29,821 nt of DNA, from positions 10,726-40,546 of the forward strand of contig BTUC01000002.1 of assembly GCA_045863575.1 (NCBI GenBank), written 5' to 3'. The DNA comes from Phycisphaerae bacterium. Its GTDB lineage: Bacteria; Planctomycetota; Phycisphaerae; UBA1845; PWPN01. Below, piece after piece: positions 2,510-28,731 of the stretch (positions within the stretch are counted from its first letter, which is position 1; every line of letters starts with the position of its first letter). The notes under the pieces were generated by a model. The model did not search any database. It was not told where the DNA came from and saw only the letters and a program-made list of their open reading frames with translations. Position numbers and translations under genes: made by a program.

Positions 2510-4609
2510 ATGACATCATCTGGCAGCAGCAAGCAACAGAACGTCTGCCCGAGCCATACGCCTGGTAAGCGGCCGGCGCCGCGTCTCTGGAGTTGGTGGC
2601 TGATTCTTTTTTCGGGCCTGGCCGCACTGGTGTGGTTTCTGGTCCGGGTACTGCCCAAGCCCGCACGGGCCGCCTATCCCTGTCAGCGGGCGGCCGCCCC
2701 GCTGGCCGCCGGCTTCGTCCTGTGGCTGGGCAGCGGCATCGGCTCCGCGTGGGCCTATCGCCAGGCTGGCCGGCTGCTGAAGCAGTCCCGTGCCCGGCTG
2801 GCGTTCGGCTGCCTGAGCATCGCCGCCGTGCTGGCCGTGATTGCCATCCAGCACACCCCGACGCCGCCGGCCGCGGCGGCTCCTCCTGTGCCCAACCAGC
2901 CGATCGGACAAGCCCAGGGGCTGCACCCGGGGCGCGTGGTCTGGGCCCACGATCCAGACGCCACCGACTGGGCCGGGCCGGGTAACGGCCATTGGTGGGA
3001 GCCCGCCCACACGAGCCAGACGCGAGTCGACCAGATGCTCTCCCGCACCCTCCGTACGCTCGCCGGCCAAACGACCGATGCCGCCGCCTGGAATGCCCTC
3101 ATCCGCCACTTCAACCAGACCCGCCGGCAGATCGTCGCCGGCTACACGCCGGGAGAAAAAATTGCCATCAAGGTGAACCTCGTCGGCTGCATCCACGCCA
3201 ACGGCTGGGGCGGCGTCGACCCGAACACCTACAACCTGGTCAGCAAAGTGGACTACATGAACACTTCGCCCCAGGTCATGCTGGCCCTGCTGCGGCAACT
3301 GGTCACTGCCGCCGGTGTCAATCCGGCGGACATCTCCATCGGCGACCCCGTGTGCCTGTTTCCGAAGCAGTATTACGATCTTCTGCACCCCGAGTTCCCG
3401 CAGGTCCAGTACCTGGATTACCTTGGGGGCAACTCCGCCAATCCGCGTACCAAGGTTCTCCCCTCCGATGTCCGCTTCTACTGGAGCGCACGGCCGACCG
3501 GCAAAACGCCCGACTATATCCCCGCTCCGTACGCGCAAGCGACCTACTTCATCAACCTGGCCAACTTCAAATCGCACAGCAGCGCCGGCGTAACGCTGTG
3601 CGGAAAGAATTACTACGGCTTCCTGGCGCGAACGCCCGTCGAGAGCGGCTACTACGATATGCACCTGACCCTGCCCGAATTGGCCGGTGGCCCCGGCCAG
3701 TACCGCTGCATGGTAGATCTCATGGGCCACGCCCACAGCGGCGGCAAGGCCCTGCTCTACCTTGTCGACGGACTCTACTCGGGTGTACACCCGACGGAGG
3801 ATTCGCCGCGCAAATGGCTCAAGCCGCCATTCAACAACGACTGGACCTCGAGCCTGTTTGCCTCGCAGGACCCGGTGGCTATTGACTCCGTCGGCTTTGA
3901 CTTTCTCTACAACGAATGGATCCTCTATACGCACATGTCCGCCGCCGACGACTATCTCCACGAGGCCGCCCAGGCCGATAACCCCCCGTCGGGCAAGTTC
4001 TACGACCCCAACCACGCCACCGCCACGACACGACTGGCGAGCCTGGGCGTCCACGAACACTGGAACAACGCGACCGATCGCCAGTACAGCCGCAACCTGG
4101 GCACCGGCGAGGGAATCGAGTTTGTGGTGGCCGGGCGCCCCACCGCCATCATCGAGGCCACTCCGACTGCCGGCCGGGCGCCGCTGAGCGTGCAGTTCGA
4201 CGGTTCCGACTCGTACGATGTGGATGGTGCGATCACGGAGTGGTCCTGGGATTTCGAGAACGACGGCGTGCCCGATGAAATCGGGCAGACGATCACGCAC
4301 GTGTACGCGACCAGCGGGGATCACACCGCGGCTCTCAGCGTGACGGACAACGAGGGCAACACCGACACGCGCACAGTCCTGATCGCCATCGACCATCAGC
4401 CGGGAGACGGCGACAGCGACTATGACGTGGACCAGTCCGATTTCGGCAGGCTACAGGCGTGCATGACCACGGCATCCCAGAGCGTGTCAGACGCATGCCG
4501 GATTTTCGACTTGAACGGCGATGGCTTTGTCAACCAGCCGGATGTCACCATCTTCCGGGGGTGCATGAGCGGGCCCAACAGCGAAGGCGAGCGCGACTGC
4601 GCCGACTGA
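2510..4609 (+). CDS. membrane-anchored secreted protein: N-terminal 3-TM anchor, large unknown (possibly DUF362-like) domain, PKD domain, C-terminal dockerin-like module
   Basis: 699 aa. Three hydrophobic helices at the N-terminus, then a Pro/Ala linker. The central domain contains GEKIAIKVNLVGC and QDPVAIDSVGFDFL. A PKD-type domain (LSVQFDGSDS...WSWDFENDG...YATSGDHTAALSVTDNEGN) lies at about 4150-4390. The C-terminal 68 aa (4403-4606) are DGDSDYDVDQSDFGRLQACM...DLNGDGFVNQPDVTIFRGCMSGPN. Confidence 0.8.
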   Translation: MTSSGSSKQQNVCPSHTPGKRPAPRLWSWWLILFSGLAALVWFLVRVLPKPARAAYPCQRAAAPLAAGFVLWLGSGIGSAWAYRQAGRLLKQSRARLAFGCLSIAAVLAVIAIQHTPTPPAAAAPPVPNQPIGQAQGLHPGRVVWAHDPDATDWAGPGNGHWWEPAHTSQTRVDQMLSRTLRTLAGQTTDAAAWNALIRHFNQTRRQIVAGYTPGEKIAIKVNLVGCIHANGWGGVDPNTYNLVSKVDYMNTSPQVMLALLRQLVTAAGVNPADISIGDPVCLFPKQYYDLLHPEFPQVQYLDYLGGNSANPRTKVLPSDVRFYWSARPTGKTPDYIPAPYAQATYFINLANFKSHSSAGVTLCGKNYYGFLARTPVESGYYDMHLTLPELAGGPGQYRCMVDLMGHAHSGGKALLYLVDGLYSGVHPTEDSPRKWLKPPFNNDWTSSLFASQDPVAIDSVGFDFLYNEWILYTHMSAADDYLHEAAQADNPPSGKFYDPNHATATTRLASLGVHEHWNNATDRQYSRNLGTGEGIEFVVAGRPTAIIEATPTAGRAPLSVQFDGSDSYDVDGAITEWSWDFENDGVPDEIGQTITHVYATSGDHTAALSVTDNEGNTDTRTVLIAIDHQPGDGDSDYDVDQSDFGRLQACMTTASQSVSDACRIFDLNGDGFVNQPDVTIFRGCMSGPNSEGERDCAD

Positions 4610-4728: not shown

Positions 4729-6915
4729 ATGCCTGGCCGCGTAGCCGCCCTATCCCTATTGGCAGCCTTGTCCATGACAGCCCCACGAGCGCAGGGGGAT
4801 CCACCGAACCCTTACGGCGTGGCCGGCTGGGGCGTGCTCACCCAACTGGGCATGCCGGCTGACTGCCTCGATTACGACTGGAACGGGCTGCATCCCGGCA
4901 CGCTGGCCCAGATGTGCCGGCCGAACCACTACTACGACTACGTGGGCATTCCACACCGCTGGTGGGGCTGGAACGAGACCACCGGCCAGATCAACGACCC
5001 GACGCGATTCGCCCAGTGGATCGCCGACAATCCAGGTCGCGTGTGGATCATCGCCAACGAGCCGGACCTCGTCTCGCAGGACGGCCTCACGCGTGAACAG
5101 TACGCCCGGATGTACAAGACTTACCACGATTTCATCAGTCCGCTGGACCCGACCGCGAAGTTCTGCATCGGCGCCATCACCGGCGGATCGACGGCCGACC
5201 GCCTGGCCTACACGACTGGTTGGTACCAGTACGTCCTGAATTACTACCAGACCACCTACGGCCAGCCGATGCCCATCGACATCTGGAATATTCACAGCTA
5301 CTGCGGCCCGACGCAGATTGAGGATCCCGACCAACCGATTCGCGACTTCATCACGCCGTTTGTCAACTGGTGCCACACGGTGGATAACGGCCGATACGCC
5401 GGTTGCGAGGTGTGGATTACCGAGCTGCCCATCGGCGAGTGGAACGGGGCGCTCAGCGAAGAGTGGATCATCTGGTTTGCACAGCGCTACCTGCCCCGAC
5501 TGGAGCGAGCCGGCATCAGCCGGTGGTTCTGGTTCGTTTCGCGCGACAACTCCGAGTGGGCGACGGTGGCGCTGGTCAAGTCCACGGGCGTGACCGCCAT
5601 CGGGCAGGCCTACTCGGCGCTGGCCAACGGGTATCCCAACGAAATCATCCCCGTCCAGCCCTACGTCCCCGCACCCACGCCGGCCTATTTTGAGGACCGT
5701 TTCGATAACCCGACGTTGAGCGCCCCCTGGATGGTCAAGGCCGGAAGGTGGGCGGTTGACTCCGGCGTTCTGCGCCAGAGCCGCATCGACTTTCCCTGGA
5801 CCGGCGAGACCTGCGTGCTCCAGCACACCTGGGGCGATTTCGACGCCACGTTCAAAATGCGCGTCAATGAGGCTACCGATGGCGTTAATTGGGCGGGCTT
5901 CGCCTTCCACGTCGGAGGGCGGTTTCAGAGCGTGTTCCAGAGTGGGTATCTTGTTTTCCTGCGCCGCAACGGCACCCTCGGCCTCCACCATACGCCCGCT
6001 GGCACCGTCCGGGAAATCCCCGCTGCCGTGGCCGATGCTACGCAGTTCCAGCAGGTCCGGGTGCAGATGAACGGCTGGCGCATCCAGGTCTGGCTCAACG
6101 GCGTCAACCTGATCGACTACACCGACGCCGGCCATCGCTACGCTTCGGGGTACACAATCCTGCAAGTGCATAAAGCTGATTGCAGCTACGACGATGTGCA
6201 GATCTGGACCACGCCAAACGTACCACCCACGGTGAGCGCCACCACGATCAGTTCGAGCCATTTGGCGGCCAATGACGAGACCACCTACTCAGTGGCCGCC
6301 ACCGCCTCCGCGGCGGAGGGTGCCGCGGAGATCCAGGTCGTGGAAGTGCTGCTCAATGACGATACGCCCGACGCTCAGCAGGCCCGGGGTCGGTTCGCCT
6401 GGGGCCTCACGGACGAGGCCATCACGCAGGACGGCGGCGGCTGGACCATCATGGGCAACGCAGAAGGCGGAGGTCGATGGGCCTGGCGGTCCGACGGCTG
6501 GGGCACCGATGCCTACGTCACGCCCCGGGGCGCGACAACGGCTGTGAACGGCACCGCCCGAACCGTGACCTTTACGTTCTCGGCTAAGCCGGCATGGGCC
6601 CCTGCATCGGAGCAGCGAGTGCATGCGGCTGCTCGCGATGCGCGCGGCGACGCAACCGGATGGGTCCTCGCTCCCGCTGTTTTCCGCGTCCGCTGCTCCG
6701 CACCCGGCGATCTGGATTGCGATGGTGATGTCGATCAGGAGGACTTTGGCCGGTTACAGACCTGTTTCTCAGGGCCCGGCTTTACGCAGTCCGACTCCGC
6801 TTGCGAGCAGGCCCGGCTGGACGCAGATCTGGACGTAGACGGCGCGGATGTGGCCATCTTCCAAAACTGCATGTCCGGCCCCAATACCCAGGCTGACCCA
6901 CGTTGCGCACCCTAG
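4729..6915 (+). CDS. secreted clan GH-A (TIM-barrel) glycoside hydrolase fused to a concanavalin/LamG-like (DUF1080-type) domain and a C-terminal dockerin-like module
   Basis: 728 aa. Signal peptide MPGRVAALSLLAALSMTAPRAQG. WIIANEPDL (acid/base NEP) and VWITELPIGEW (nucleophile TE) are about 110 aa apart, as in GH-A families (Glyco_hydro_cc/GH128/GH5-like). The middle domain WMVKAGRWAVDSGVLRQSRIDF...FKMRV...QQVRVQMNGWRIQVWLNGVNLIDYTD resembles DUF1080/3-keto-disaccharide-hydrolase-type beta-sandwiches. The C-terminal 68 aa (6709-6912) are DLDCDGDVDQEDFGRLQTCFSGP...DADLDVDGADVAIFQNCMSGPN. Confidence 0.85.
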   Translation: MPGRVAALSLLAALSMTAPRAQGDPPNPYGVAGWGVLTQLGMPADCLDYDWNGLHPGTLAQMCRPNHYYDYVGIPHRWWGWNETTGQINDPTRFAQWIADNPGRVWIIANEPDLVSQDGLTREQYARMYKTYHDFISPLDPTAKFCIGAITGGSTADRLAYTTGWYQYVLNYYQTTYGQPMPIDIWNIHSYCGPTQIEDPDQPIRDFITPFVNWCHTVDNGRYAGCEVWITELPIGEWNGALSEEWIIWFAQRYLPRLERAGISRWFWFVSRDNSEWATVALVKSTGVTAIGQAYSALANGYPNEIIPVQPYVPAPTPAYFEDRFDNPTLSAPWMVKAGRWAVDSGVLRQSRIDFPWTGETCVLQHTWGDFDATFKMRVNEATDGVNWAGFAFHVGGRFQSVFQSGYLVFLRRNGTLGLHHTPAGTVREIPAAVADATQFQQVRVQMNGWRIQVWLNGVNLIDYTDAGHRYASGYTILQVHKADCSYDDVQIWTTPNVPPTVSATTISSSHLAANDETTYSVAATASAAEGAAEIQVVEVLLNDDTPDAQQARGRFAWGLTDEAITQDGGGWTIMGNAEGGGRWAWRSDGWGTDAYVTPRGATTAVNGTARTVTFTFSAKPAWAPASEQRVHAAARDARGDATGWVLAPAVFRVRCSAPGDLDCDGDVDQEDFGRLQTCFSGPGFTQSDSACEQARLDADLDVDGADVAIFQNCMSGPNTQADPRCAP

Positions 6916-11331: not shown

Positions 11332-11399
11332 GCAAGTGAGCATACGGCGGGAGCTTGTGGCGCGGATACGTGGATGAGATTTCGAGAGGAGGCAGCGAC

Positions 11400-13373
11400 A
11401 TGCAAGTATTCACCGGCATCGTGTTCCTCGGCATGGCCCTGATCGTTCTACCGATCGTACTCGAGGATCAGTTCGGGGCTTACCGGTGGGTCCTGATTCC
11501 GCTGGGAGCGGCGCTGCTGGTGATCAGCACGTTCTGCCTGCTGATCGCGCGCTTCTATCGCAAGCCGGCCGCGAATCAGGCCTATGTGCGGACCGGCATG
11601 GGTTCCGCCAAGGTGATCCTGGACGGCGGCGCCTTCGTCATCCCGGTCGTGCACCAGCTCGTCGAGGTGAGCATGGAAACCATGCGCCTCGACGTCAAGC
11701 GCGTCGGGCAGGACGCCCTGATCACGCGTGACAATCTCCGCGTGGACATCGCCAGCGAGTTCTACATTCGCGTGGACGCGAACAAGGAGGCGATCCTTCA
11801 AGCCGCCCGGTCGCTGGGTGAGAAGAGTGTCAACGCCCAGGCTGTCTCCGATCTGGTCTACGAGAAACTGGTCAGCGCTCTGCGCAGCGTGGCCGCCACC
11901 AAGGATCTGCTCGAGCTGCACGTCAAGCGCGATGAATTCGCTTCGGCGGTGCTCGAGAACCTGACCTCCGACCTCCTGCAGAACGGTCTCAAGCTGGAAA
12001 CGGTGACCATCAGCCAGCTCGACCAGACGCCGCCGGAGAGCCTGAACGAACGCAACGTTTTCGACGCCCAGGGGCTCCGCAAAATTACCGAAATCACGCA
12101 GTCTCAGAACGTCGAGCGCAACCGGATCAACCGGGACGCCGAGCGGCAGATCAAGGAAAAGGACGTCGGCATCCGCAAGGAGGTCCTGGGGCTGGAGAAG
12201 GACCAGGCGGAGGCCGAGGCCATGCAGGCCACCGAGATCGCGAACATCAAGGCGGCCAAGCTTCGCGAACAGCAGGAGTACGAGATCCAGCAGCGCCGCG
12301 AGGTCGAACTGGCGGCCGTGCAGAAAGACGAGGCCGTCAAGAGAGCGGAGATTCTCAAGAACCAGTCGGTACAGGTCGCGGACGTGGAGCGGGAACGACA
12401 GGTTAAAACGCAGATGGTTGTGCGCGACCAGAAAGTGCAGGAGGCCGAGGCCGCGCGTCAGCAGGCGGTCGAGGTCGCCAAGCGTCTGGCCGAAATCGCC
12501 ATCGCCGAGAAGGAAGCCGCCCGGGCGGCCGCCGAGGCCAAGGCCAAGGCCGCCGAGTCCGAGCGCGAAAAAGAGGCGCAGAATGTCCAGACCGTGGCGG
12601 TGACCGCCGAGGCCGACCGCGAAGCGCAGAAGAAGATGATCGAGGAGAAGCAGCAGGTGGACGTGGCCAGGTACCGCCAGCAGATTGAGGCCGACGTCGC
12701 CGCTTACACCCAGGTCAAGAAGGCCGAGGGCGAGCTGCAGGCCGCCGAGAAGCAGAAGCAGGCCCGGCTGGTGCTGGCCCAGGCGGACGCCGAGGCCGCC
12801 AAGCGCCGCGCCGAGGGCGACCAGGCCGTCAAGATGGTGGACGTGTCCGTCGATCGCGAGCGCGTGGCCGTCGAGCAGGCCCGCGTCGACGTCGAGCGCA
12901 AGGAACTGGAGAACAAGCAGACCTTCGGCGAGGCGGCCCTCGAGTTCGAGGTCTCCAAGCTGGAGATCCAGGCCAACGCGGAAGTCCAGAAAGCCTTCGC
13001 CCAAGCCATCGGCAACATGCTCTCGCACGCCAACATGCAGATCTTTGGCGACCCGACCACGCTGTCCAACATGGCCGGGCGGTTCATGCAGGCCGCCGGC
13101 TACGGGCAGATGCTCAACGGGCTGAAGGCCTCACTGCCCGAAGACGTGCAGCAGATCGCCGGTCGGGCATTGACCGGAATGGGCGGTTCCCTGGCCGCGG
13201 CATTGCAGAAGGTGACCGGGCAGCACGTCGAACCGGCCGTCCTCGAGAGAGTGATCTCCGAGGTGGTCGCCGATCAGACGGCCCCGCCCGCAGAGGGCAA
13301 CGGCCGGCGCGTGGAGGCAACTCCGGCCAAACCCGAAGCGCCTGCCCGCAAGCAGGAAGAGAAGAAGAGCTGA
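11400..13373 (+). CDS. floT: flotillin-like SPFH/Band-7 protein (FloT/YuaG/YqiK type) with long EA-rich coiled-coil
   Basis: GAGGAGG SD 7 nt upstream of the ATG at 11400 (track start 11355 is probably too long). N-terminal TM anchor, SPFH domain (RTGMGSAKVILDGGAFVIPVVHQLVEVSMETMRLDV...ITRDNLRVDIASEFYIRV), then about 350 aa of E/A/K/Q-rich heptad coiled-coil typical of flotillin. Confidence 0.9.
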   Translation: MQVFTGIVFLGMALIVLPIVLEDQFGAYRWVLIPLGAALLVISTFCLLIARFYRKPAANQAYVRTGMGSAKVILDGGAFVIPVVHQLVEVSMETMRLDVKRVGQDALITRDNLRVDIASEFYIRVDANKEAILQAARSLGEKSVNAQAVSDLVYEKLVSALRSVAATKDLLELHVKRDEFASAVLENLTSDLLQNGLKLETVTISQLDQTPPESLNERNVFDAQGLRKITEITQSQNVERNRINRDAERQIKEKDVGIRKEVLGLEKDQAEAEAMQATEIANIKAAKLREQQEYEIQQRREVELAAVQKDEAVKRAEILKNQSVQVADVERERQVKTQMVVRDQKVQEAEAARQQAVEVAKRLAEIAIAEKEAARAAAEAKAKAAESEREKEAQNVQTVAVTAEADREAQKKMIEEKQQVDVARYRQQIEADVAAYTQVKKAEGELQAAEKQKQARLVLAQADAEAAKRRAEGDQAVKMVDVSVDRERVAVEQARVDVERKELENKQTFGEAALEFEVSKLEIQANAEVQKAFAQAIGNMLSHANMQIFGDPTTLSNMAGRFMQAAGYGQMLNGLKASLPEDVQQIAGRALTGMGGSLAAALQKVTGQHVEPAVLERVISEVVADQTAPPAEGNGRRVEATPAKPEAPARKQEEKKS

Positions 13374-15275: not shown

Positions 15276-16466
15276 TCAAGAGCAATCCGGTTTCCGGCGG
15301 GGCTTCAGCCGGGTCACGGCCATAGCTGCCAAAGCCGCCCAGGCCAGCAACAGCGCACTTGGTTCCGGGGTCTGGTACGATGTGCCCAGATAGGCAACCC
15401 AGGTCACCACCCGCAATGCTTCCGTCGGGCAAAAGCCATACCCCATCAGCATCCGTCCGTCGTCCGAAACACTCAAGGCGTTCATCAGTTCCCAGCCTTC
15501 AACATCCAGGCCTACCTCGGCCAGCACGGCGGAAACCGATCGCAGTCCATGTGCCTTGTCCCACATCAGAGCCCCGTCCGTACCCTCGCCCACAATCACC
15601 GAACCGTCCGATGATACGTCTAACGCTCCGGAGTACACGTGGCCGCCCGGGAGATATCCAAGGCTGACCATCCCTGTTTCCGCTGTCCAACGGAAAGCTT
15701 CGACCCCCAGAGCCGACGTGCCCCTGCCGACAATGACCTTCCCGTCCGCAGAAACGGCCGTCGCCGTACTGCTGAACAACCCTCCGCCAAAGTCGCCGAG
15801 CCCCACCATGCCCTCGGCCGGCGTCCAACGAAAGGCTTCGGAGTACAGTCCGCTCGCGGCGGAGGAGCTCTCTCCCACGACAACCCCGCCGTTCCTGGAA
15901 ACCCCCAAGGCTCGTCCATAGAACCTACCGCCTGGCAATTCGCCAAGTGATTCAATCTGCGGAATCGGCGCATTCCACCGCCACTGAACAGCCTCAGTGC
16001 CGGAGGAAGAGGTGCCGTAGCCGACGAAACTCGCTCCCCCAAAAGCTAACACCTCACTATGAAACGCGCCTCCCGGAAGGTCGCCCAGGCCGATCTGCCG
16101 ATTCTGACCGACCGGCGTAAACATGTACGCTTCCGTGACCCCGGGCTTCGTGCGCGCTCCGACGAAGACATGAGGGGGCCCCGGGCTCACGTCTGTCGGT
16201 CGCCAGTTCGTAAAACCAACTCCCGGTCCAGGGAGGGGGCCGAGACCGTCCGTCGCATTCCATGTCCAGGGGCGGGTAGCGCCTGTGATCGGGTCTTCCG
16301 CCTGCCCGACGACTCGCACGCCATCCGACGAGAGCGCCGTTCCCCACATGTTGGGGTAGCCAGGTAGTTGCCCGACCTCCAAGAGAAAGGGCGGCTCGGC
16401 CGCGACGGTGGCCGCGAAAACCAGCACGATCGCAGCGGTGTGTGGATTCATGAGGCTGCGTGCCAT
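15276..16466 (-). CDS. HAF-repeat extracellular protein with PEP-CTERM sorting signal
   Basis: 396 aa. AGGAGG SD 6 nt upstream of the ATG. Signal peptide, then 5 or more repeats of about 45 aa (G.LPGG..S.A.GVS.DG.VVVG.S...G.EAFRW....GM..LG). C-terminal PEPSALLLAWAALAAMAVTRLKPRRK is a PEP + hydrophobic + basic tail. Confidence 0.8.
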   Translation of the reverse strand: MARSLMNPHTAAIVLVFAATVAAEPPFLLEVGQLPGYPNMWGTALSSDGVRVVGQAEDPITGATRPWTWNATDGLGPLPGPGVGFTNWRPTDVSPGPPHVFVGARTKPGVTEAYMFTPVGQNRQIGLGDLPGGAFHSEVLAFGGASFVGYGTSSSGTEAVQWRWNAPIPQIESLGELPGGRFYGRALGVSRNGGVVVGESSSAASGLYSEAFRWTPAEGMVGLGDFGGGLFSSTATAVSADGKVIVGRGTSALGVEAFRWTAETGMVSLGYLPGGHVYSGALDVSSDGSVIVGEGTDGALMWDKAHGLRSVSAVLAEVGLDVEGWELMNALSVSDDGRMLMGYGFCPTEALRVVTWVAYLGTSYQTPEPSALLLAWAALAAMAVTRLKPRRKPDCS

Positions 16467-16679: not shown

Positions 16680-17927
16680 CTATTCTCCATGCCTGGCCGA
16701 CTCGTCGCTCTTCGCTTCGGGTGACCCGCGCCCCCGCATCTGCTCACCTCGACCGGTATACCGAAGCCTGTAAATCCGGTTACCTTTGTCGTCGCTGATG
16801 AGAAGCGTCCCATCGGGTGCAACGGCCACGTCCACCGGCCGGCCCAGCGGCGACTTGGCGCCTTCGGGAAGGAAGTGAACATACCTCTGTTCGCCGTAGG
16901 GCCGGCCGTTCTCAAACAACACGCGAGTCACGCAGTAGCCCGCCGGCTTGCTGCGGTTCCACGAGCCGTGGTAAGCCACGAACGCGTCACCCCTATGTCC
17001 GGGAAACTGGTCGGCCGTGTAGAACTCCATGGCATTGGCCGCCCAGTGAGCACCGCCGCACCACTCGGGAACAGTGGTTTTGGCGGCCAGGGCGACGATG
17101 TCCTCCCGCTCCATGTACTCGTAGCGCGGCAATCTCATGCCCACGATGAAAGGATGGCCGTAGAAGCCCCCTTCCCGATAGTGATTCATCTCTTCAGGAG
17201 GGTTCAGATCCGTGATCGGCTGGCCGGCCTCACCGCCCTCCCCGAGTTCCTTTCCGAACCAGTCGCTGCCGTGATCCATGCCCCAGATTTCATCGGTACC
17301 CGGCCGGACGACGAGTTTCTCGGTATTGCGGATGCCCGTGCAGAAAAGCTTCTCATCGCTGCCGTCGAGGGCGTAGGACCAGATTTTCTGGCGCTTGGTG
17401 TCGGCTTCGTCGGTGATGTTCCCGCTGTCCCCGATGCTGGTGTACAGCCGCCCTTTATGGATCAGGATCGACCGCCACCAGTGGCCGCCCCCTTTAGTCA
17501 AACGCCCTTCGGGGATCACGATGACGTGCTCGTCGCTACGGCCATCCCCATCGGTGTCCCGGGCCCGCCCAATGGCAGTCGACAGGGAGTACCACAGCCA
17601 GCCGTCGTGCCAGCACAACCCGTGCACCGACGGGCCCGCCTTGAGGAAGGTCGTGATCTGTTCGTAATGACCATCCCCATCCGCATCGCGGCAAGCTTTG
17701 ATTTCACCATCAGTTGGAACACTGACGTACAGCGTCTGATCCGATCCCAGCCGCATGAATCGCGGAGTCTTGATTCCGTCAACAACCACCGTGAGCGAGT
17801 AACCGGGGCGGACCCAGGGGCCCGGCGCCCCCTCGGAAGCTGCGCTACCAAAACCCCCGAGGATGGAAAGTAGCCCTGCCAGCCCGACCCATGCGAGCCG
17901 ACCCGTATGTCCGATAATCAAGCCCAT
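16680..17927 (-). CDS. soluble quinoprotein glucose/sorbosone dehydrogenase-family (GSDH, beta-propeller) protein
   Basis: The preferred start is the ATG at 17927 (MGLIIGHTGRLAWVGLAGLLSILGGFGSAASEG signal peptide, GGAGAG box upstream). The track's TTG start at 17999 adds 24 aa with no signal peptide. Family-typical motifs DADGDGHYE, DTDGDGRSDEHVIV, GGGHWWRSI, YGHPF, APDGTLLISDDKGNRIYRL. Confidence 0.8.
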   Translation of the reverse strand: MGLIIGHTGRLAWVGLAGLLSILGGFGSAASEGAPGPWVRPGYSLTVVVDGIKTPRFMRLGSDQTLYVSVPTDGEIKACRDADGDGHYEQITTFLKAGPSVHGLCWHDGWLWYSLSTAIGRARDTDGDGRSDEHVIVIPEGRLTKGGGHWWRSILIHKGRLYTSIGDSGNITDEADTKRQKIWSYALDGSDEKLFCTGIRNTEKLVVRPGTDEIWGMDHGSDWFGKELGEGGEAGQPITDLNPPEEMNHYREGGFYGHPFIVGMRLPRYEYMEREDIVALAAKTTVPEWCGGAHWAANAMEFYTADQFPGHRGDAFVAYHGSWNRSKPAGYCVTRVLFENGRPYGEQRYVHFLPEGAKSPLGRPVDVAVAPDGTLLISDDKGNRIYRLRYTGRGEQMRGRGSPEAKSDESARHGE

Positions 17928-18382
17928 TTCTGCTCTCCGGAAGCCCTGCTGCCCAGGACGACAGCAGGAGAGGATGGCGGAAACCCGGTCCTGGATCAAC
18001 CCTGGAGCATCATGGCGGTTCTGGGACTCACGAGCGCGCCGACAATGGTATCTCAGATCAATTTTTAACCAGATTTACAAAGTGACCTCTTGATCTGCTG
18101 AATGTAATCGGGTAAAACAGGATGTAATTCAGGGGGAGAGACACCAAACGCAGGTGTCCGGTGAGGAAAGGAGCGCGCGGAGATGCCGCCAGTCGCGGCT
18201 CGGAGGGCAAGGGAAAGTTGTAGTCATTCCGTACTTTCCCGGCCTCTCAAATCTCTCACCTCGCTCCCAATCTTGTTGAGTGCGACCGAACCAGTGGGGT
18301 TCGTTTCGACAAATCGTTGAAGGCAAGCTTGCGCAGATCGCATCTCGCGGAATAGGGCTTGCCGGAAGAAGGAGGAGTGAAC

Positions 18383-19021
18383 ATGCGAAAGTACGTGATT
18401 CTGAGTGCATTGCTGACAGCGACGATCGTCGCACCCGCCAGCGCGAATCTGCTGGTGAACGGCGGTTTCGAGACTGGCGACCTGACCGGCTGGACTCACT
18501 ATCAGGATGGTTGGGGCGGCGGCGTGAGCAGCGCCGTGGGCGGAGACGGGGACGCCACCCTCTGGAATCCGACCGATCGAACACCGGAAGGAAACTACTC
18601 CGCCCGGGTGACTGACGGAAACAGCGGTTCCGGCGGCATCTACCAGGTCGTGGATACATCTGCCCTGATCGGCCAGACGATCAACCTGCAGGGCTTGGTG
18701 CACACCGGCCGCAACACCTCGAGCAATTGGCAGGATGGCTGGCATGAGTTCGGTGTCATGCCCGGCACCAACACCAACCCGAACGCCGGCACAGCGATCG
18801 TCCTCTACAAGCGCGATTCCGGCGCCGCCGATGAGTGGGTCGCCGTTGACCTCCCGTTCTCGGTCACGACCCCTACGGTCACGGTGTTTGCCAAGGTTGG
18901 CGCCGTCAATAGCGTCCCCGTGGCCACCTGGATTGACGCGGCTGTCCTGACTCCCGAGCCGGCCACACTGGCCCTGCTGGGGATTCCGATGCTGCTCTTC
19001 CGCCGTCGGCGTCAGGCCTGA
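18383..19021 (+). CDS. PEP-CTERM protein with CBM4_9-like carbohydrate-binding module (paralog 1)
   Basis: ATG at 18383 preceded by AAGGAGGAGTGAAC. Signal peptide MRKYVILSALLTATIVAPASA; NLLVNGGFETGDLTGWT (CBM4_9 hallmark); C-terminal VLTPEPATLALLGIPMLLFRRRRQA. Confidence 0.85.
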   Translation: MRKYVILSALLTATIVAPASANLLVNGGFETGDLTGWTHYQDGWGGGVSSAVGGDGDATLWNPTDRTPEGNYSARVTDGNSGSGGIYQVVDTSALIGQTINLQGLVHTGRNTSSNWQDGWHEFGVMPGTNTNPNAGTAIVLYKRDSGAADEWVAVDLPFSVTTPTVTVFAKVGAVNSVPVATWIDAAVLTPEPATLALLGIPMLLFRRRRQA

Positions 19022-19094
19022 CCAGCACGAAGCCCGGACGGACCATGTGCATGAGTCTTGGCCCGGGCTGAGCTGCTCCCTGTTTGTCTAACTG

Positions 19095-19137
19095 AAACGC
19101 CGCGCCCTATTCTCGGGGCGCGGCGTTTTTCTATTTT
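19095..19137 (+). terminator. rho-independent terminator of PEP-CTERM paralog 1
   Basis: aaacgccgcgccc-tattctc-gggcgcggcgttTTTCTATTTT. A 12-13 bp GC stem with a 7-nt loop and a T-tract, 75 nt after the stop. Confidence 0.8.
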
Positions 19138-19554
19138 ACTTCAACGAGAAGCTGCGGCCCATTAGTGCGGGAGGAGACCGGGCCGTCAAAATATCCATGC
19201 AAAATACAACAATCCTCTTGAATGCTCGTCGCGAGCGAGGTATAAGAAAACTCAGAGGCCGGAGTTTGATTCCTTCTGATTCGGCATCAGGCCGTTGCAA
19301 GAGCGTACCGGGCTGACTTGGCCCGGAGGTCGGAAAGACATTGAGGGAGAAAAGCATTCTGCAGCATTCGTGCGCATTCTTGCCAATTCCCTTCCGACCA
19401 GGACCGATCGTCTTCGCTCTTTTCATCTTCGCGTATAACCGGAACCGTGTGGTCCGGTAATTCGCTTTTCGCGCTGGGCGGCCTGTAACAAGCCGCCGAA
19501 TGAGGGGCTGCATCTTTCACAGGCAAATCGCAGCCAAAAAAAGGAGGAGTGAAC

Positions 19555-20205
19555 ATGCGTAAGATGGCAATCATCGGTGCACTGGCGGTGGTGGCGGCGT
19601 TCGTGGCCCCGGCCAACGCTGTTCTGGTGGTGAATGGCGACTGGTCAACCGGCGATGAGACTGGTTGGACCCAGTGGGCATCGCCCTGGGGCGGAAATCA
19701 TGCATGGTCGGTCGATGCTGGTGATGGCAATCCGGCTCCCGCAGGCAAGCTCACCATCAACGACGGAGCGGGCGGGAAAAGCTTCGGGTGGTATCAGGCC
19801 ATTCCGGCTGTCGTGGGCCAGAGCTATACGATCACGGGGGATTGGTCCGGCAGCCAGATTGGCTGGATCGAGCTGATGTTCTTCAGTGACGATGGTCGTC
19901 CGATCTACGATCAGCTTGATGCGCCGGTCGCCGGTGCGGTGATCGCCAAGCGCGACGCAGGCGGCCTGGGCGGCGGCCCGAATTTCGGCTGGTAGTCTGC
20001 CCTGAACTCGCAGCAGAACCCCAACACGCAGGTCGCCACCGCCCCGATCATGTACGTCGGGCTCAAGGTTGGCGCGGTTCCGGGATTCGGTGGCTTCCCG
20101 GCCGTGGGTGCGTTTGACAACATCACGGTTGTGCCCGAGCCGGCCACGCTGGCCCTGCTCGGCCTGCCCATGGTGGTACTCTTCCGCCGTCGGCGCCACG
20201 CCTGA
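19555..20205 (+). pseudogene. PEP-CTERM / CBM-like paralog 2, interrupted by an in-frame TAG at 19993-19995 (annotated ORF ends there; 70 further in-frame codons encode an intact PEP-CTERM tail)
   Basis: ATG at 19555 with the same AAGGAGGAGTGAACATGCG context as paralog 1. Signal peptide MRKMAIIGALAVVAAFVAPANA; VLVVNGDWSTGDETGWT. After W-TAG the same frame reads SALNSQQNPNTQVATAPIMYVGLKVGAVPGFGGFPAVGAFDNITVVPEPATLALLGLPMVVLFRRRRHA-TGA (20203-20205), checked codon by codon. That tail is homologous to the C-terminus of paralog 1. Confidence 0.6.
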
Positions 20206-20271
20206 TCAAGCTTCTTCCAGGAGGTGCCGTTCGCACCTCAGCGACAATCATCATCAGGTGATACACCATGG

Positions 20272-20310
20272 ACCGCCGCGGGCACCTTAAACCCGCGGCG
20301 GTTCTTGTTC
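20272..20310 (+). terminator. terminator-like hairpin (ACCGCCGCGGG-N9-CCCGCGGCGGT followed by TCTTGTT) 67 nt after the downstream TGA of paralog 2
   Basis: Perfect 11-bp GC stem, then a T-rich run. A second, smaller hairpin (GAGGTGC-cgttc-GCACCTC) lies at about 20219-20240. Confidence 0.5.
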
Positions 20311-20526
20311 GTCCACCCCCCGGCTCAGCAGGGTTCAGGGGACATATAGATTTGGATGGGAGCGGCGCCGGCCGTCCTGCAGGAGTACCCGATTGGGGCG
20401 AAATCCTGGTCTCACGAGAGGCGACGCGTGAACCGGCAGGTTACTAAAATCATTCCGACCCGGACCGCAGCGCACGCGTGGGCTGCTGTGCGCTAACGAG
20501 ACCGGCATTAGAAGGAGCCATCCCCC

Positions 20527-21750
20527 TTGCAGTTGATGGATACCTCATTGGCCGCGACCGGAATCGCAGAGCCGCTGGAACTCGGTGTACAGGCGGGACA
20601 TCCCCGGCACAACCGGCTGTTCCGAAGCTTCTTCCTTGGCGGATTTGAATGTTCCTGCCACTTCCGATACCAGGGGGGGCCCCGACTGGATGTGATCGCC
20701 GCCACGAACCACGACCAGTGGGCGCGGCAGGACTACGCCGCCTTACAGAGGTTCGGCATTCGCACCGTCCGGGACGGGATCCGCTGGCATCGCATCGAGA
20801 CGACGCCCGGGGAGTACAACTTCGCCTGCGATCTCCCGCTGGTGCGTGCCGCCCGCCAGACGGGAACTCAGGTCATCTGGGATCTCTGCCACTACGGGTG
20901 GCCCGACGACCTGGACCCGTTCACCGCTGAGTTCCCGCGCCGCTTGGCCGCCCTGAGCAAGGCTTTTGTCCGGCTCCTGCTGGAAGAAGGTGAAGAACAG
21001 CCATTCGTCGTACCCGTGAATGAGATTTCATTTCTCTCGTGGATTGGCGGGACGGAAGGCAAATTCCCGCCGTTCGCCACGCACCGCGGCGATGAACTCA
21101 AGCGAGCGCTGGTACGGGCCACCATTGAGACCATTGAGGCCGTCCGGGAAGTCGCTCCTCAGGCCCGCTTCTGCCTGGTCGACCCCATGATCAATGTGGT
21201 GGGTCATCAAGACAATCCGGAGGACTGCCGACAGGCCGAAGAATACCGCCTGGCCCAGTACGCTGCCTGGGACATGATTGCCGGACGAGCGGCACCCGAA
21301 CTGGGCGGCAAACCTGAGTACCTGGACATCATTGGCGTCAACTACTATGTACACAACCAGTGGCTGCACGCGGGCCATGGCGAGTTTGTGCGAATGCTCA
21401 AGCCGTCAGACGCCGGGTACCGACCCGTTTCCAACCTGCTGGCTGAGGTCCACGAGCGCTACCAGCGGCCTATTTTCATTGCCGAAACAGGAATAGAAGG
21501 CCGCCACCGGGCCCCGTGGCTCCGGAGCATCTGTCGTGAAGCGGGCAAGGCACTCACGGCCGGCGTCCCCCTCGAAGGGATCTGTCTTTATCCGGTGGTG
21601 GATTACCCGGGATGGGCAGATGATCGCCACTGCCCCGTCGGCCTTCTGGGCTACGCGGGACGGGGTGGCCGTCGCCCGGTCTATCGGCCATTGGCAGCGG
21701 AGATGAAGCGCCAGCAGGCGCACTTCTGCGCCTTAATGGGGGGCTGCTGA
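20527..21750 (+). CDS. glycoside hydrolase family 1-like (clan GH-A beta-glycosidase-like) protein, short form
   Basis: 407 aa, TTG start 9 nt after an AGAAGGAG SD. GH1-like N-terminus FFLGGFECSCHFRYQGG...DYAALQRFGIRTVRDGIRWHRIETTPGEYNF (compare GH1 'RfSIsWsRI.P.G.G..N'). NE in VPVNEISFL (acid/base) and IAETGIEG (nucleophile; compare ITENG). Confidence 0.75.
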   Translation: MQLMDTSLAATGIAEPLELGVQAGHPRHNRLFRSFFLGGFECSCHFRYQGGPRLDVIAATNHDQWARQDYAALQRFGIRTVRDGIRWHRIETTPGEYNFACDLPLVRAARQTGTQVIWDLCHYGWPDDLDPFTAEFPRRLAALSKAFVRLLLEEGEEQPFVVPVNEISFLSWIGGTEGKFPPFATHRGDELKRALVRATIETIEAVREVAPQARFCLVDPMINVVGHQDNPEDCRQAEEYRLAQYAAWDMIAGRAAPELGGKPEYLDIIGVNYYVHNQWLHAGHGEFVRMLKPSDAGYRPVSNLLAEVHERYQRPIFIAETGIEGRHRAPWLRSICREAGKALTAGVPLEGICLYPVVDYPGWADDRHCPVGLLGYAGRGGRRPVYRPLAAEMKRQQAHFCALMGGC

Positions 21751-23954: not shown

Positions 23955-24345
23955 CTACCGAGGCGCACGAAGTGAATCGCACCTGCTTTCCAGACGCACG
24001 AGGCGGATGACGGCGAGACTCGGGATGCACGTCTGCATGCATCCTGACGAAGTGTTCCGCCCTCCGGAGCATGGCGCGATGAGCGTCACGCGGAAGAAAC
24101 TATCCGTCTGCAGGACTGACCAGCTTCAGCCGGGCCGAGTACGCCGGTTGCATGGGTTCCACGCGTCGCCGACCTGCGGATCACCGCGTTCACATGCCTC
24201 CTCCGGCCCTCGGCCGGTCGCCACGGTTTTTTGAAAGCAACCCGCCTCCGGTGCTGCCGCCCGCGCCCCGGGGAAGCTACGAACTGCGCGCCGCGAGGCG
24301 CCGGCAGAAAACATGGGTCTGCGGACCATAAACGGGAGGATATCC

Positions 24346-27213
24346 ATGAAAGATTCGTTGCCCATAATCGTATTCTCTCATCTGCGGTGGGACTGGGTCT
24401 ATCAGCGCCCCCAGCATCTGATCTCGCGGTTGGCGGCCGGACGCCGTGTCTTCTTTGTCGAGGAACCCCAGCATGAACCAGGCGGCGAAGCGCGATGGAA
24501 CTTCTCCGAACCCGAACCGAACGTCCTCGTCTGCCGGCCTCTCACCCCCGTGGCGGCGCCGGGATTCGCTGATGAGCAGATGCCGGCCCTGCACTGCCTT
24601 TTGAGAGAATTGCGCGAGCGCGCCCATCTCGACGAATACGTCGTGTGGTTCTATACCCCCATGGCCCTTCCCCTGCTCGCGGGGCTCAAGCCGGCCGGCG
24701 TGGTGTACGACTGCATGGATGAGCTTTCGGCGTTCCGTGGCGCGCCGCCCGCACTGCTCGAGCGGGAAGCCGCCCTCTATCATGCGGCAGATGTCGTGTT
24801 CACCGGCGGGCCGAGCCTCTACAAGGCGAAACGCAGCCGCCACCACAACGTGCACTGCTTCCCCAGCAGCGTGGATGCCGCCCATTTTGGGAAGGCCCGC
24901 GGGCTGGCGCAGGAGCCCAAGGACCAGGCGGCGCTGGCCGGTCCGCGCCTGGGCTTCTTCGGCGTCATCGATGAGCGGCTGGACCTTCAGCTTCTGGATG
25001 CCATGGCCAGAGCCCACCCGGACTGGCAGATCTGCATGGTTGGCCCGGTGATCAAGATCGATCCGGGAGTGCTGCCGCGGCACACCAACATCCACTACTT
25101 CGGTCAGCGGCCCTACGAAGCCCTGCCCGGTTATCTGAAGGGTTGGGACGTCTGCCTGCTGCCGTTCGCGCGCAACGAAGCGACTCGGTTTATCAGCCCC
25201 ACGAAGACACTGGAGTACATGGCCGCGGAGAAGCCGATCGTCAGCACGCCGATTACCGACGTGGCCGAGCCCTACGGCCACATCGTCCGCCTGGGTGACG
25301 ACGCGGCCACGTTCATCGCAGCCTGCGAACAGGCGCTCAGCGCCACGCCGGAAGACCGCGCCGCACGAACGGCCGAAATGCGCAAAGTGCTGGCCAGAAC
25401 GTCCTGGGATACGACCGCCCGGGCCATGGCCGATCAGATCGAGGCGGTCGTGGCGGCCCGGCGGACTCTCAGCGCCTCATCCGCCCGGCAGCCCGCCGCC
25501 TCCTCAGACGAATCCGCAGGGCGCGTGGTCGTGGTCGGCGCCGGCCCGACCGGCTTGAGCGCCGCCTACCACCTGGGCTCCGACGCCCTGCTGCTCGAAC
25601 GCAACGAGCGCGTCGGCGGCTGGTGCCGGTCCATTGAGGATGGGGGCTTCACCTTCGATTACGCCGGCCACATCATGTTCTCCAACGACCCCTACGTGCA
25701 CGAACTCTACGAGAAGCTCCTGGGAGACAACGTCCACTGGCAGAACCGCGAGGCCTGGATCTTCAGCAAGGGCGTCTACACACGCTACCCGTTCCAGGGC
25801 GCCCTCTACGGTCTTCCACCTGAGGTGATCAAGGAGTGTATTGTCGGCGCAATTGAGGCACGCTTCGGCCCGATCAGGAAGAAAGCCTCCTCCGGCAATT
25901 CGACCGCTTCCGGCAACGGCAACGGCCGGGAGGCATCCTTGAAGATCGAAGCGCAGGGGGCGACCCCGCCCGCGGGCAACGGCAAAGTCAACGGCAACAA
26001 CGGCCATGCCCCAGGCTCTGCACGAACGACCAATGGCCACTCCAGGCCGCTCGCGGAGACACGCTCAGTTGCCTCCAGCTGCGCGGCTGGTGACGCCAAG
26101 GACTGCTGCGCGGACGGGCTCATGGAGAGTACGGCCCGCCTGGGCAGACCACAGAACACCAACGGCAATGGGAACGGGAACGGGTCGGATGCTTCCGGTG
26201 AGCCTCGAAACTTCGAGGAGTTCATCTATAGGGTGTGGGGCGCGGGCATCGCGAAGCACTTCGCGATTCCCTACAACCGCAAGCTGTGGGCCGTGCCGCT
26301 GACCGAGATGGAAACGTCCTGGCTGGGCGGGCGGGTTCCTCTGCCGGATCTGGAGGAGATGATCGACGGAGCCCTCAAGCCCGTCCCCGCCCCCATGGGT
26401 CCCAACGCGCGGTTCGGCTATCCGCTGCGCGGCGGATTCCAGGCACTCATGAACGGCTTCCTGCCGCACGTGCAGGACCGCCTGCGGCTGAACACAGCGG
26501 TCAAGAGTGTATCGCCCCGTCGCAAGACCATTACCACGCGAGATGGCGAGGAGATCCGCTACGAGTACCTGATCAGCACCATGCCTCTGCCGGTGCTGAT
26601 CGGGAGCATGGGTGACGAGGTGCCCGCATCCGTCCGGCAGGCGGCCGCCGGCTTGCGCTACGTCTCGGTTCGCTGCGTCAACATTGCCGTGGGCCGCGAG
26701 AACCTCACCGAGAAGCATTGGATCTACTACCCCGAGGACACGGTATTCCACCGCATCTTTGTGCAGGGCAATGCCAGTCCTCACTGCAACCGGCCCGGGG
26801 GCTTCGGCTTCACCTGTGAGATCACCTACTCACCGCACAAGCCGCTGCCCTGTGATGGTCAGGACCTGATCCAGCGTTGCATCGACGATTGCCGGCGCGT
26901 CGGCTTCATCCGGGAGGATGACCCCGTCTGGTGCGCGAACCAGGTGGACATGCCGCACGCGTATGTCGTCTACGACCACGGCCGATCGCGGAACGTGAAG
27001 CAGATCCGGGACTGGCTGGAAGAGCAGGACATCCTGCTGGCCGGCCGTTACAGCGAGTGGGAATACTACAACTCAGACCACGCCTTCATCGCCGGCAAGA
27101 AAGCGGCCGACAAGGTCCGGGAGCTCATGGCCGAGAGGTCGAATCGAAGCACTCGCGCCGCGGGGACGAGTCGAGTTCTGTCGGGCAAGGCCACCGCCGG
27201 CACGGGCGTCTGA
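24346..27213 (+). CDS. bifunctional fusion: GT-B glycosyltransferase (GT1/GT4-like) + eukaryotic-type UDP-galactopyranose mutase (UGM/Glf) with N/G-rich loop insertion
   Basis: ATG at 24346 sits 6 nt after GGGAGGA (track start 24313 is probably 11 codons too early). N-terminal 390 aa: IIVFSHLRWDWVYQRPQHLISRLA...EYMAAEKPIVSTP (GT-B E-x7-E). C-terminal about 560 aa align along their whole length with fungal/kinetoplastid UGM, from my recollection of the family, not a search: VVVGAGPTGLSAA, AGHIMFS, YPFQGA, NFEEFIYRVWGAGIAKHFAIPYNRKLWAVPLTEMETSWLGGRVPLPDLE, KHWIYYPED, GRYSEWEYYNSDHAF. An about 115-aa N/G/S-rich insertion (25880-26215; SGNSTASGNGNG...NTNGNGNGNGSD) lies between the ALEAR and FEEF motifs. 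Confidence 0.85.
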   Translation: MKDSLPIIVFSHLRWDWVYQRPQHLISRLAAGRRVFFVEEPQHEPGGEARWNFSEPEPNVLVCRPLTPVAAPGFADEQMPALHCLLRELRERAHLDEYVVWFYTPMALPLLAGLKPAGVVYDCMDELSAFRGAPPALLEREAALYHAADVVFTGGPSLYKAKRSRHHNVHCFPSSVDAAHFGKARGLAQEPKDQAALAGPRLGFFGVIDERLDLQLLDAMARAHPDWQICMVGPVIKIDPGVLPRHTNIHYFGQRPYEALPGYLKGWDVCLLPFARNEATRFISPTKTLEYMAAEKPIVSTPITDVAEPYGHIVRLGDDAATFIAACEQALSATPEDRAARTAEMRKVLARTSWDTTARAMADQIEAVVAARRTLSASSARQPAASSDESAGRVVVVGAGPTGLSAAYHLGSDALLLERNERVGGWCRSIEDGGFTFDYAGHIMFSNDPYVHELYEKLLGDNVHWQNREAWIFSKGVYTRYPFQGALYGLPPEVIKECIVGAIEARFGPIRKKASSGNSTASGNGNGREASLKIEAQGATPPAGNGKVNGNNGHAPGSARTTNGHSRPLAETRSVASSCAAGDAKDCCADGLMESTARLGRPQNTNGNGNGNGSDASGEPRNFEEFIYRVWGAGIAKHFAIPYNRKLWAVPLTEMETSWLGGRVPLPDLEEMIDGALKPVPAPMGPNARFGYPLRGGFQALMNGFLPHVQDRLRLNTAVKSVSPRRKTITTRDGEEIRYEYLISTMPLPVLIGSMGDEVPASVRQAAAGLRYVSVRCVNIAVGRENLTEKHWIYYPEDTVFHRIFVQGNASPHCNRPGGFGFTCEITYSPHKPLPCDGQDLIQRCIDDCRRVGFIREDDPVWCANQVDMPHAYVVYDHGRSRNVKQIRDWLEEQDILLAGRYSEWEYYNSDHAFIAGKKAADKVRELMAERSNRSTRAAGTSRVLSGKATAGTGV

Positions 27214-27878: not shown

Positions 27879-28731
27879 CTATCGCCCGAAACAGGATAGC
27901 CTAGCGCCGGGTGTTCCGTAAGCCTGGGTCTTGGTGGTAAGCAGGCAGGTGGTCTCCTGGTAGACCCCCCAGGTCACATCGGCCGTGCCGGGCTCGGCGG
28001 GCCAGGTATCCGCGTTCCACGAGCTGCCACCCTGGAACGTGTGCATTTTCCGTCCGCCGTCCGTACGCGTCGTAATCATAACTGGGTAGCCGTACGTGGT
28101 CGTGGCTGGCCGAGTCCTGTTCGTAGTCGATGGCCCCCTTGGGAACGGCCGTGCGGTACGCCGTCGTGGTGGTCAGCCCGCGGGCGTCGGTCACGCCGGT
28201 CCGCCGGCCCAGTGGATCGTAGGCGTACCGGAACAGCAGCCAGCCAGTCTTGGCGTGATGTGTTTGCAGCAGGCCGTTGCGCGTGACCAGCACCTCATTG
28301 TAGTTCGCGTCCCAGTGATTGACGCTCCGGGTCACCCGCTTGTCGGCCAGGAGCAACGTCTCGGTGGTGATGTTCACGTTGCCGTGAGCATCCTGGACGC
28401 GCGTCTCACCGATCGTGCCTGCCGGGAAGTTGGTCAGCCGCCGTCGCTGGTAAGACGTCGGCGCCGTCCCGCTGTCGTCGGCGTGGACCTGGCTCGAAGT
28501 GGTCAGCCACCAGTCGCTGCCGATCTTCTCGTAAGCGGTTGAGGATGCAGTGATACGGTCGGCCGAGGCGGCGGTCAGATCGCCATCCGGCAGTTGATGG
28601 CCGTAAGGACGAGCCGGGAGGCGCGGGCCACAAGTGGCCCTCGGACCGCCACCGGCAGGGCTACGGCCGGCACGGCGACCTGACCGCGAGGAACTCTTAA
28701 GTGGTGGCGAGAGAGGCCGCGGCCGGGGATC
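27879..28731 (-). pseudogene. Rhs/YD-repeat protein fragment (internal core repeats only; no start codon, frameshifted near 28079)
   Basis: The minus-strand frame is open from the stop at 28732-34 down to 27901 (hand-translated): ...ADRITASSTAYEKIGSDWWLTTSSQVHADDSGTAPTSYQRRRLTNFPAGTIGETRVQDAHGNVNITTETLLLADKRVTRSVNHWDANYNEVLVTRNGLLQTHHAKTGWLLFRYAYDPLGRRTGVTDARGLTTTTAYRTAVPKGAIDYEQDSASHDHVRLPSYDYDAYGRRTEN... shows the YxYDxxGR YD-repeat periodicity. The N-terminal 60 aa are R/P-rich with no ATG. A second frame (27879..28079) continues after a +1 shift. There is no Rhs N-terminal domain, no DPxGL core end and no toxin tip. Confidence 0.5.

Follow-up and report, generated by a model that had tools for sequence, protein, structure and literature searches.

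An in-frame TAG codon in a PEP-CTERM protein gene of Phycisphaerae bacterium AMXMBFR13 is probably a recent nonsense variant

Introduction

Why does a gene that ends at a TAG codon continue, in the same frame, into an intact PEP-CTERM sorting signal? Both pieces match the MAG "Phycisphaerae bacterium AMXMBFR13" exactly; there, on a contig of 56,392 nt, the locus appears as a pair of hypothetical proteins, the 146-aa GMU19955.1 and the 51-aa GMU19956.1. An earlier note on this DNA offered three readings: a recent amber mutation or sequencing error, programmed UAG read-through, or a decaying pseudogene. We analysed the locus within the 29,821-nucleotide stretch of DNA that surrounds it, here called the window. 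We suggest that the gene probably carries a real, sample- or MAG-specific C-to-T nonsense variant, by which Gln147 (CAG) of one 216-aa gene became TAG.

The interrupted gene

The in-frame TAG at 19993-19995 was confirmed in the window. The open reading frame from ATG 19555 ends in ...GGGPNFGW, and translation through the stop continues ...PNFGW, TAG, SALNSQQ...VVPEPATLALLGLPMVVLFRRRRHA up to TGA 20203-20205 (Table 1). Between the two stops lie 69 sense codons in the same frame, translated as SALNSQQNPNTQVATAPIMYVGLKVGAVPGFGGFPAVGAFDNITVVPEPATLALLGLPMVVLFRRRRHA. In brief, the 5' part encodes a putative signal peptide (MRKMAIIGALAVVAAFVAPANA) and the N-terminal two thirds of a CBM-like beta-sandwich, and the 3' part contains the invariant residues K171, G173 and D188, the Pro-Glu-Pro motif at residues 194-196, a transmembrane helix and RRRR. 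The central claim of the earlier note, an in-frame TAG with an intact PEP-CTERM tail downstream, is thus borne out by translation and by the HMM match described below. Its frame and stops also stand, whereas its lengths need correction: the 70 codons are 69 by our count, and the products of 148 and 217 aa become 146 and 216 aa when counted from ATG 19555. Judging from the sequence, this ATG is the likely start, rather than the listed GTG 19549 two codons upstream, and the resulting lengths of the truncated and full-length products agree with the database entries.

The 51-aa CDS GMU19956.1 is a gene-caller artefact of the split, because its ATG 20050 has no Shine-Dalgarno sequence upstream and its product has no signal peptide. 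Re-initiation at ATG 20050 was rejected on the same two points, the product being a 51-aa fragment.

An open stretch of 69 codons is by itself unremarkable, as 19% of the stop-to-stop intervals in the window, whose DNA is 63% G+C, are at least that long. Its significance rests on the PEP-CTERM match and on the intact alleles; together with these, the GC3 of 0.86 after the TAG is evidence of coding.

Table 1. Positions in the window of the split gene, its parts and its flanking signals
Feature	Position	Strand	Description
Upstream tandem paralog, intact	18380..19021	+	213 aa; signal peptide, LLVNGGFETGDLTGW motif, PEP-CTERM tail
Shine-Dalgarno-like AGGAGG	19543..19548	+	six bases 5' of ATG 19555, read from the sequence
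Split gene, 5' part, ending in premature TAG	19555..19995	+	146 aa; NCBI GMU19955.1
Premature amber codon TAG	19993..19995	+	T at 19993; 7/7 other near-identical contigs have C (CAG, Gln147)
Split gene, 3' part	19996..20205	+	69 codons + TGA; last three beta-strands and PEP-CTERM signal
51-aa CDS GMU19956.1	20050..20205	+	its ATG is the codon of internal Met166 in the 216-aa protein
Probable intrinsic terminator of the full-length gene	20270..20309	+	13-bp stem, 9-nt loop, TTGTT; z = -4.3

The sorting signal, the terminator and the upstream paralog

Scored with the NCBIfam PEP-CTERM model TIGR02595, the tail reaches 19.4 bits and exceeds the cut-off of 16; with Pfam PF07589 it stays slightly under the cut-off (19.6 bits against 20.7). 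The TIGR02595 match applies to the read-through or intact product only. By eye, the N-terminus, MRKMAIIGALAVVAAFVAPANA followed by VL, resembles a classical signal peptide with an AxA site, and a helix is modelled at residues 3-15.

The hairpin 3' of the TGA has a GC-rich stem, spans 20270-20304 and starts 64 nt after the stop codon. Folding of the 120-nt region that contains it gave the z-score listed in Table 1, whereas no hairpin follows the TAG, where folding of 19975-20095 gave z = 0.13. The earlier note had placed a strong terminator after the second stop and not after the first, and this holds. The hairpin is absent from the consensus terminator scan, probably owing to its 9-nt loop, as the scan permits loops of at most 8 nt.

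The note had also described the tail as homologous to the C-terminus of the upstream paralog. The read-through product and this paralog are 36% identical (E = 2e-17) in an end-to-end alignment that crosses the stop, in agreement with that description. The two CBM-like PEP-CTERM paralogs are arranged in tandem, each with a terminator of its own (that of the upstream paralog at 19094-19129), and 527 nt of non-coding DNA lie between them. The same pair is found at 1870-2508 and 3034-3684 of contig L009, where the order of genes is that of the window: a GSDH-like dehydrogenase, paralog 1, paralog 2, a GH1-like gene and a GH2 gene.

Three PEP-CTERM genes are found in the window, and the other two (18380-19021 on the plus strand and 15279-16466 on the minus strand) are uninterrupted, so that the check for stops ahead of the sorting signal in other PEP-CTERM genes turned up none in these two. 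The gene at 15279-16466 encodes an intact protein of 396 aa with HAF repeats (TIGR02913, 53 bits) that ends in ...PEPSALLLAWAALAAMAVTRLKPRRKPDCS.

Predicted fold and effect of the truncation

An AlphaFold2 model of the full-length protein, built on an alignment of 26 sequences, has a mean pLDDT of 88 and a pTM of 0.81. It shows a helix in the putative signal peptide, then a beta-sandwich, and a second helix at the C-terminus (residues 199-215). A Foldseek search against the PDB found carbohydrate-binding modules, among them the hyaluronan-binding CBM70 (4d0q), CBM61 (2xon), CBM16 (2zey) and CBM4 structures (probability 1.0, target-normalised TM-score about 0.7, sequence identity 10-18%). No Pfam CBM model passes its cut-off for the protein of the split gene, and the paralog scores 17.5 bits against CBM_4_9, under the cut-off of 25.9. 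On the strength of the model, the protein is CBM-like by fold rather than an established CBM family member.

Residue 147 lies in the modelled strand 144-148. The strands 158-160, 165-175 and 183-194 (block pLDDT 88-98) and the anchor are all located past residue 146. According to the model, the 146-aa product is probably non-functional and misfolded. As an incomplete sandwich without a sorting signal, it argues against a designed secreted short form.

Homologs and near-identical alleles

The alignment holds 26 family members, P0001 and 25 more distant homologs that are 31-71% identical to it, all of which are full length and carry the PEP-CTERM tail. At the column of the premature stop every homolog has a sense residue, Q in the closest relatives and mostly E elsewhere. 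The invariant positions K171, G173, D188 and P194-E195-P196 are all C-terminal to the stop. This family has no curated annotation; its intact members are small, stand-alone, CBM-like, PEP-CTERM-anchored Phycisphaerae proteins encoded beside glycoside hydrolases, and are uncharacterised.

Three intact 216-aa variants, P0001, P0029 and P0030, belong to the same protein cluster at 90% identity. P0030 is identical to the read-through product of the window except for Q at residue 147, and P0001 and P0029 differ from that product by one or two further residues. At the nucleotide level, base 19993 is C in all seven contigs (L001 and L004-L009) that stem from seven other samples (SRR32688062, SRR32688063, SRR32688067, SRR32688069, SRR25057006, DRR491770 and JGI 3300061720). 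Contig L005 (run DRR491770) differs from the window at 1 of 2,464 bases, namely 19993, and L004 (SRR25057006) at 3 of 5,072 bases, with no indels; L009 (JGI 3300061720) is about 95% identical to the window and also has CAG. The intact JGI allele L009 was recovered through a protein index, whereas a 41-nt probe spanning the site, its variable base set to N, had no match in the JGI metagenome contigs. Among the representative genomes in genome_contigs, which do not include the species of the window, the sole match was L003, a Phycisphaerae MAG homolog with 51% identity.

The comparison of orthologous loci that the earlier note had proposed thus gave CAG in 7/7 near-identical contigs and a sense residue in 25/25 homologs. 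Since CAG is found in the other alleles and a sense residue in the homologs, the TAG is derived, having arisen by a single transition in one sample.

The TAG allele was found only in the MAG and in Logan contig L002 of run DRR491768. L002 has a length of 2,259 nt, is 100% identical to the window and is continuous through the TAG site. Both accessions are of the DDBJ type, and DRR491768 is most likely the MAG's own read set. As L002 and the MAG probably share reads, the T is confirmed across two assemblers and not across two samples.

Origin of the TAG codon

We favour the view that the organism really has T at 19993, as a variant dominant in the sample concerned, over a consensus error. The opposite reading, in which the T is a sequencing or consensus error or a promoted minority variant and the organism really has CAG and an intact gene, is unlikely. 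It would account for the TAG being known from a single read set and for the C in every other sample, even in sister run DRR491770, whose 2,464 nt match the window at all other bases. Against it, the T is present in two assemblies of that read set, the deposited MAG and L002, the latter being unbroken at the site; the lack of indels against 5 kb of other assemblies indicates high consensus quality; and substitution errors seldom reach the consensus at normal Illumina depth. The true gene encodes a 216-aa PEP-CTERM protein whether the T is a variant or an error. An old, decaying pseudogene would fit a gene that is interrupted beside an intact paralog, but hardly deserves credence, as the TAG is the sole lesion, the read-through product is 100% identical to P0030 apart from Q147 and the locus is 1 nt from that of L005. 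The earlier note had argued from the intact downstream domain against old decay, which is correct, yet the same domain lends no support to read-through. We also consider it very unlikely that an amber allele fixed in one bioreactor population acts as a leaky knock-down of a surface-anchored CBM-like protein, through low-level misreading of UAG by tRNA-Gln, or that the loss itself was selected there; if such basal read-through with Gln were true, a low-level peptide containing ...NFGWQSALNSQQ... would be expected.

Programmed or exploited UAG read-through would yield a short secreted form and a full-length, PEP-CTERM-anchored form from one gene, and the downstream frame is indeed open, encodes a perfect sorting signal and has its terminator after the second stop. 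Near-cognate decoding of UAG by tRNA-Gln would, moreover, restore the wild-type residue at low frequency. We nevertheless regard this reading as highly improbable. A stop at this position is found in 0/7 near-identical alleles and 0/25 homologs and is thus conserved in no relative, which fails the defining expectation of programmed read-through, and the short form would be without three core beta-strands. The sequence after the TAG has no structure (z = 0.13), and the region 18000-20700 has no Rfam match. The base after the TAG is T, a strong, efficient termination context in E. coli. TAG is also an ordinary terminator in the window, and we found no literature tying PEP-CTERM proteins to stop-codon read-through. 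A stop that is not conserved, a codon that normally terminates and the lack of a stimulatory structure all speak against the second reading of the earlier note. The ancestral Gln would also agree with a suppressor tRNA or with TAG having been reassigned to glutamine throughout the genome, and TAG-to-Gln recoding occurs in some phages and eukaryotes, but this can practically be dismissed. TAG ends at least 4 of about 18 genes in the window; the four are high-GC3 open reading frames that end at 6915 and 10147 (plus strand) and at 27901 and 16680 (minus strand), and in each case the next stop follows after 11-34 non-coding-looking codons, so that the extensions are short. The code is thus standard. 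In-frame TAG is absent from the long open reading frames, the longest of them 993 codons, and the split gene is the only interrupted one in the window. Read with the standard code, about 87% of the window is coding (sum of ORF lengths). The strain of L005, otherwise identical, has CAG. No tRNA genes are present in the 29.8-kb window.

Two further candidates were rejected: pyrrolysine at the TAG, the ancestral residue being Gln, and phase variation, the site having no repeat tract.

We therefore return to the recent nonsense variant. The first reading of the earlier note, a recent amber mutation or sequencing error, is strongly supported by the CAG in all seven contigs and by the single-base difference from L005, and decay is excluded with the TAG as the only lesion. 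The ancestral gene would have encoded a signal peptide, a CBM-like beta-sandwich and a PEP-CTERM anchor in 216 aa. One C-to-T transition at 19993, confined to one sample or MAG and essentially one mutation old, would have created the TAG. Translation would then end normally at this codon and release a secreted fragment of 146 aa, without three of the core strands and without the sorting signal. Most likely the fragment is misfolded and degraded, which would make the allele null or strongly hypomorphic, and the intact upstream tandem paralog may buffer the loss. That the terminator, the PEP-CTERM signal and the other strands are still intact would follow from the very recent date of the mutation, which has left no time for decay.

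We suggest merging GMU19955.1 and GMU19956.1 into one entry, marked as a nonsense-SNP-disrupted gene or as a pseudogene. An intact domain past a stop is the expected mark of a mutation that is one SNP old and is not evidence of recoding. The finding matters little outside annotation; the intact family may be modestly relevant to how planctomycetes capture polysaccharides at the cell surface.

Other genes in the window

The gene just 3' of the split gene, at 20527-21750 on the plus strand, encodes a 407-aa protein with weak similarity to GH1 beta-glucosidases (Pfam GH1, 23.8 bits; TIGR03356, 34 bits against a cut-off of 478). From these scores, it may represent a divergent glycoside hydrolase family. 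It adjoins the PEP-CTERM gene in contigs L004, L005 and L009 as well.

The GSDH-like dehydrogenase is encoded at 16680-17999 on the minus strand and ends in ...ARHGE followed by TAG, whereas its ortholog at 109-1413 of L009 ends in ...GSSDG followed by TAA. The different tails suggest an indel or frameshift near the 3' end of the gene, and with differing C-termini the comparison is uninformative on TAG as a terminator.

At 24313-27213 on the plus strand, a 966-aa open reading frame encodes a group-1 glycosyltransferase (approximately residues 211-373) fused to an FAD/NAD-binding amine-oxidase-type domain (approximately 404-935), which is an unusual combination. A flotillin/SPFH (Band 7) protein is encoded at 11355-13373 on the plus strand. 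It has a long coiled-coil-like region rich in Glu, Ala, Lys and Gln, which gives rise to an AT skew of 0.42 at 12001-13000 and to spurious high-GC3 open reading frames in other frames. The 699-aa protein encoded at 2510-4609 on the plus strand combines DUF362 with a PKD domain and a weak match to dockerin type I (21 bits, slightly under the cut-off). A dockerin-like module is curious for a Phycisphaerae genome.

Comparison with known systems

The full-length protein resembles PEP-CTERM/exosortase proteins (TIGR02595, PF07589) in its putative signal peptide, Pro-Glu-Pro motif, hydrophobic helix and Arg cluster (VVPEPATLALLGLPMVVLFRRRRHA), and in having several paralogs. It is unlike them in that a premature TAG here parts the sorting signal from the body of the protein. 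No match to an exosortase was found among the open reading frames of the window scanned with Pfam.

Its predicted fold is that of beta-sandwich CBMs (CBM4/9, CBM16, CBM61 and CBM70), and its N-terminal 'VNGDF/W..G..TGW' motif is typical of CBM_4_9-like modules. GH1-like and GH2 genes neighbour the CBM-like gene. Unlike CBMs carried on enzymes, the module here stands alone and has a membrane or cell-surface anchor.

The Q-beta A1 protein is an example of programmed stop-codon read-through. The locus resembles it in that the frame stays open after an in-frame stop and encodes a meaningful extension. It differs in that no relative conserves the stop, a stimulatory signal is absent and the short product would be an incomplete domain.

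The locus also resembles nonsense-SNP split genes, or incipient pseudogenes, in bacterial strains and MAGs, in which one transition leaves two short hypothetical proteins while sister strains are intact. Nothing sets the case in the window apart from these, and it is an ordinary, already known kind of lesion rather than a new recoding phenomenon.
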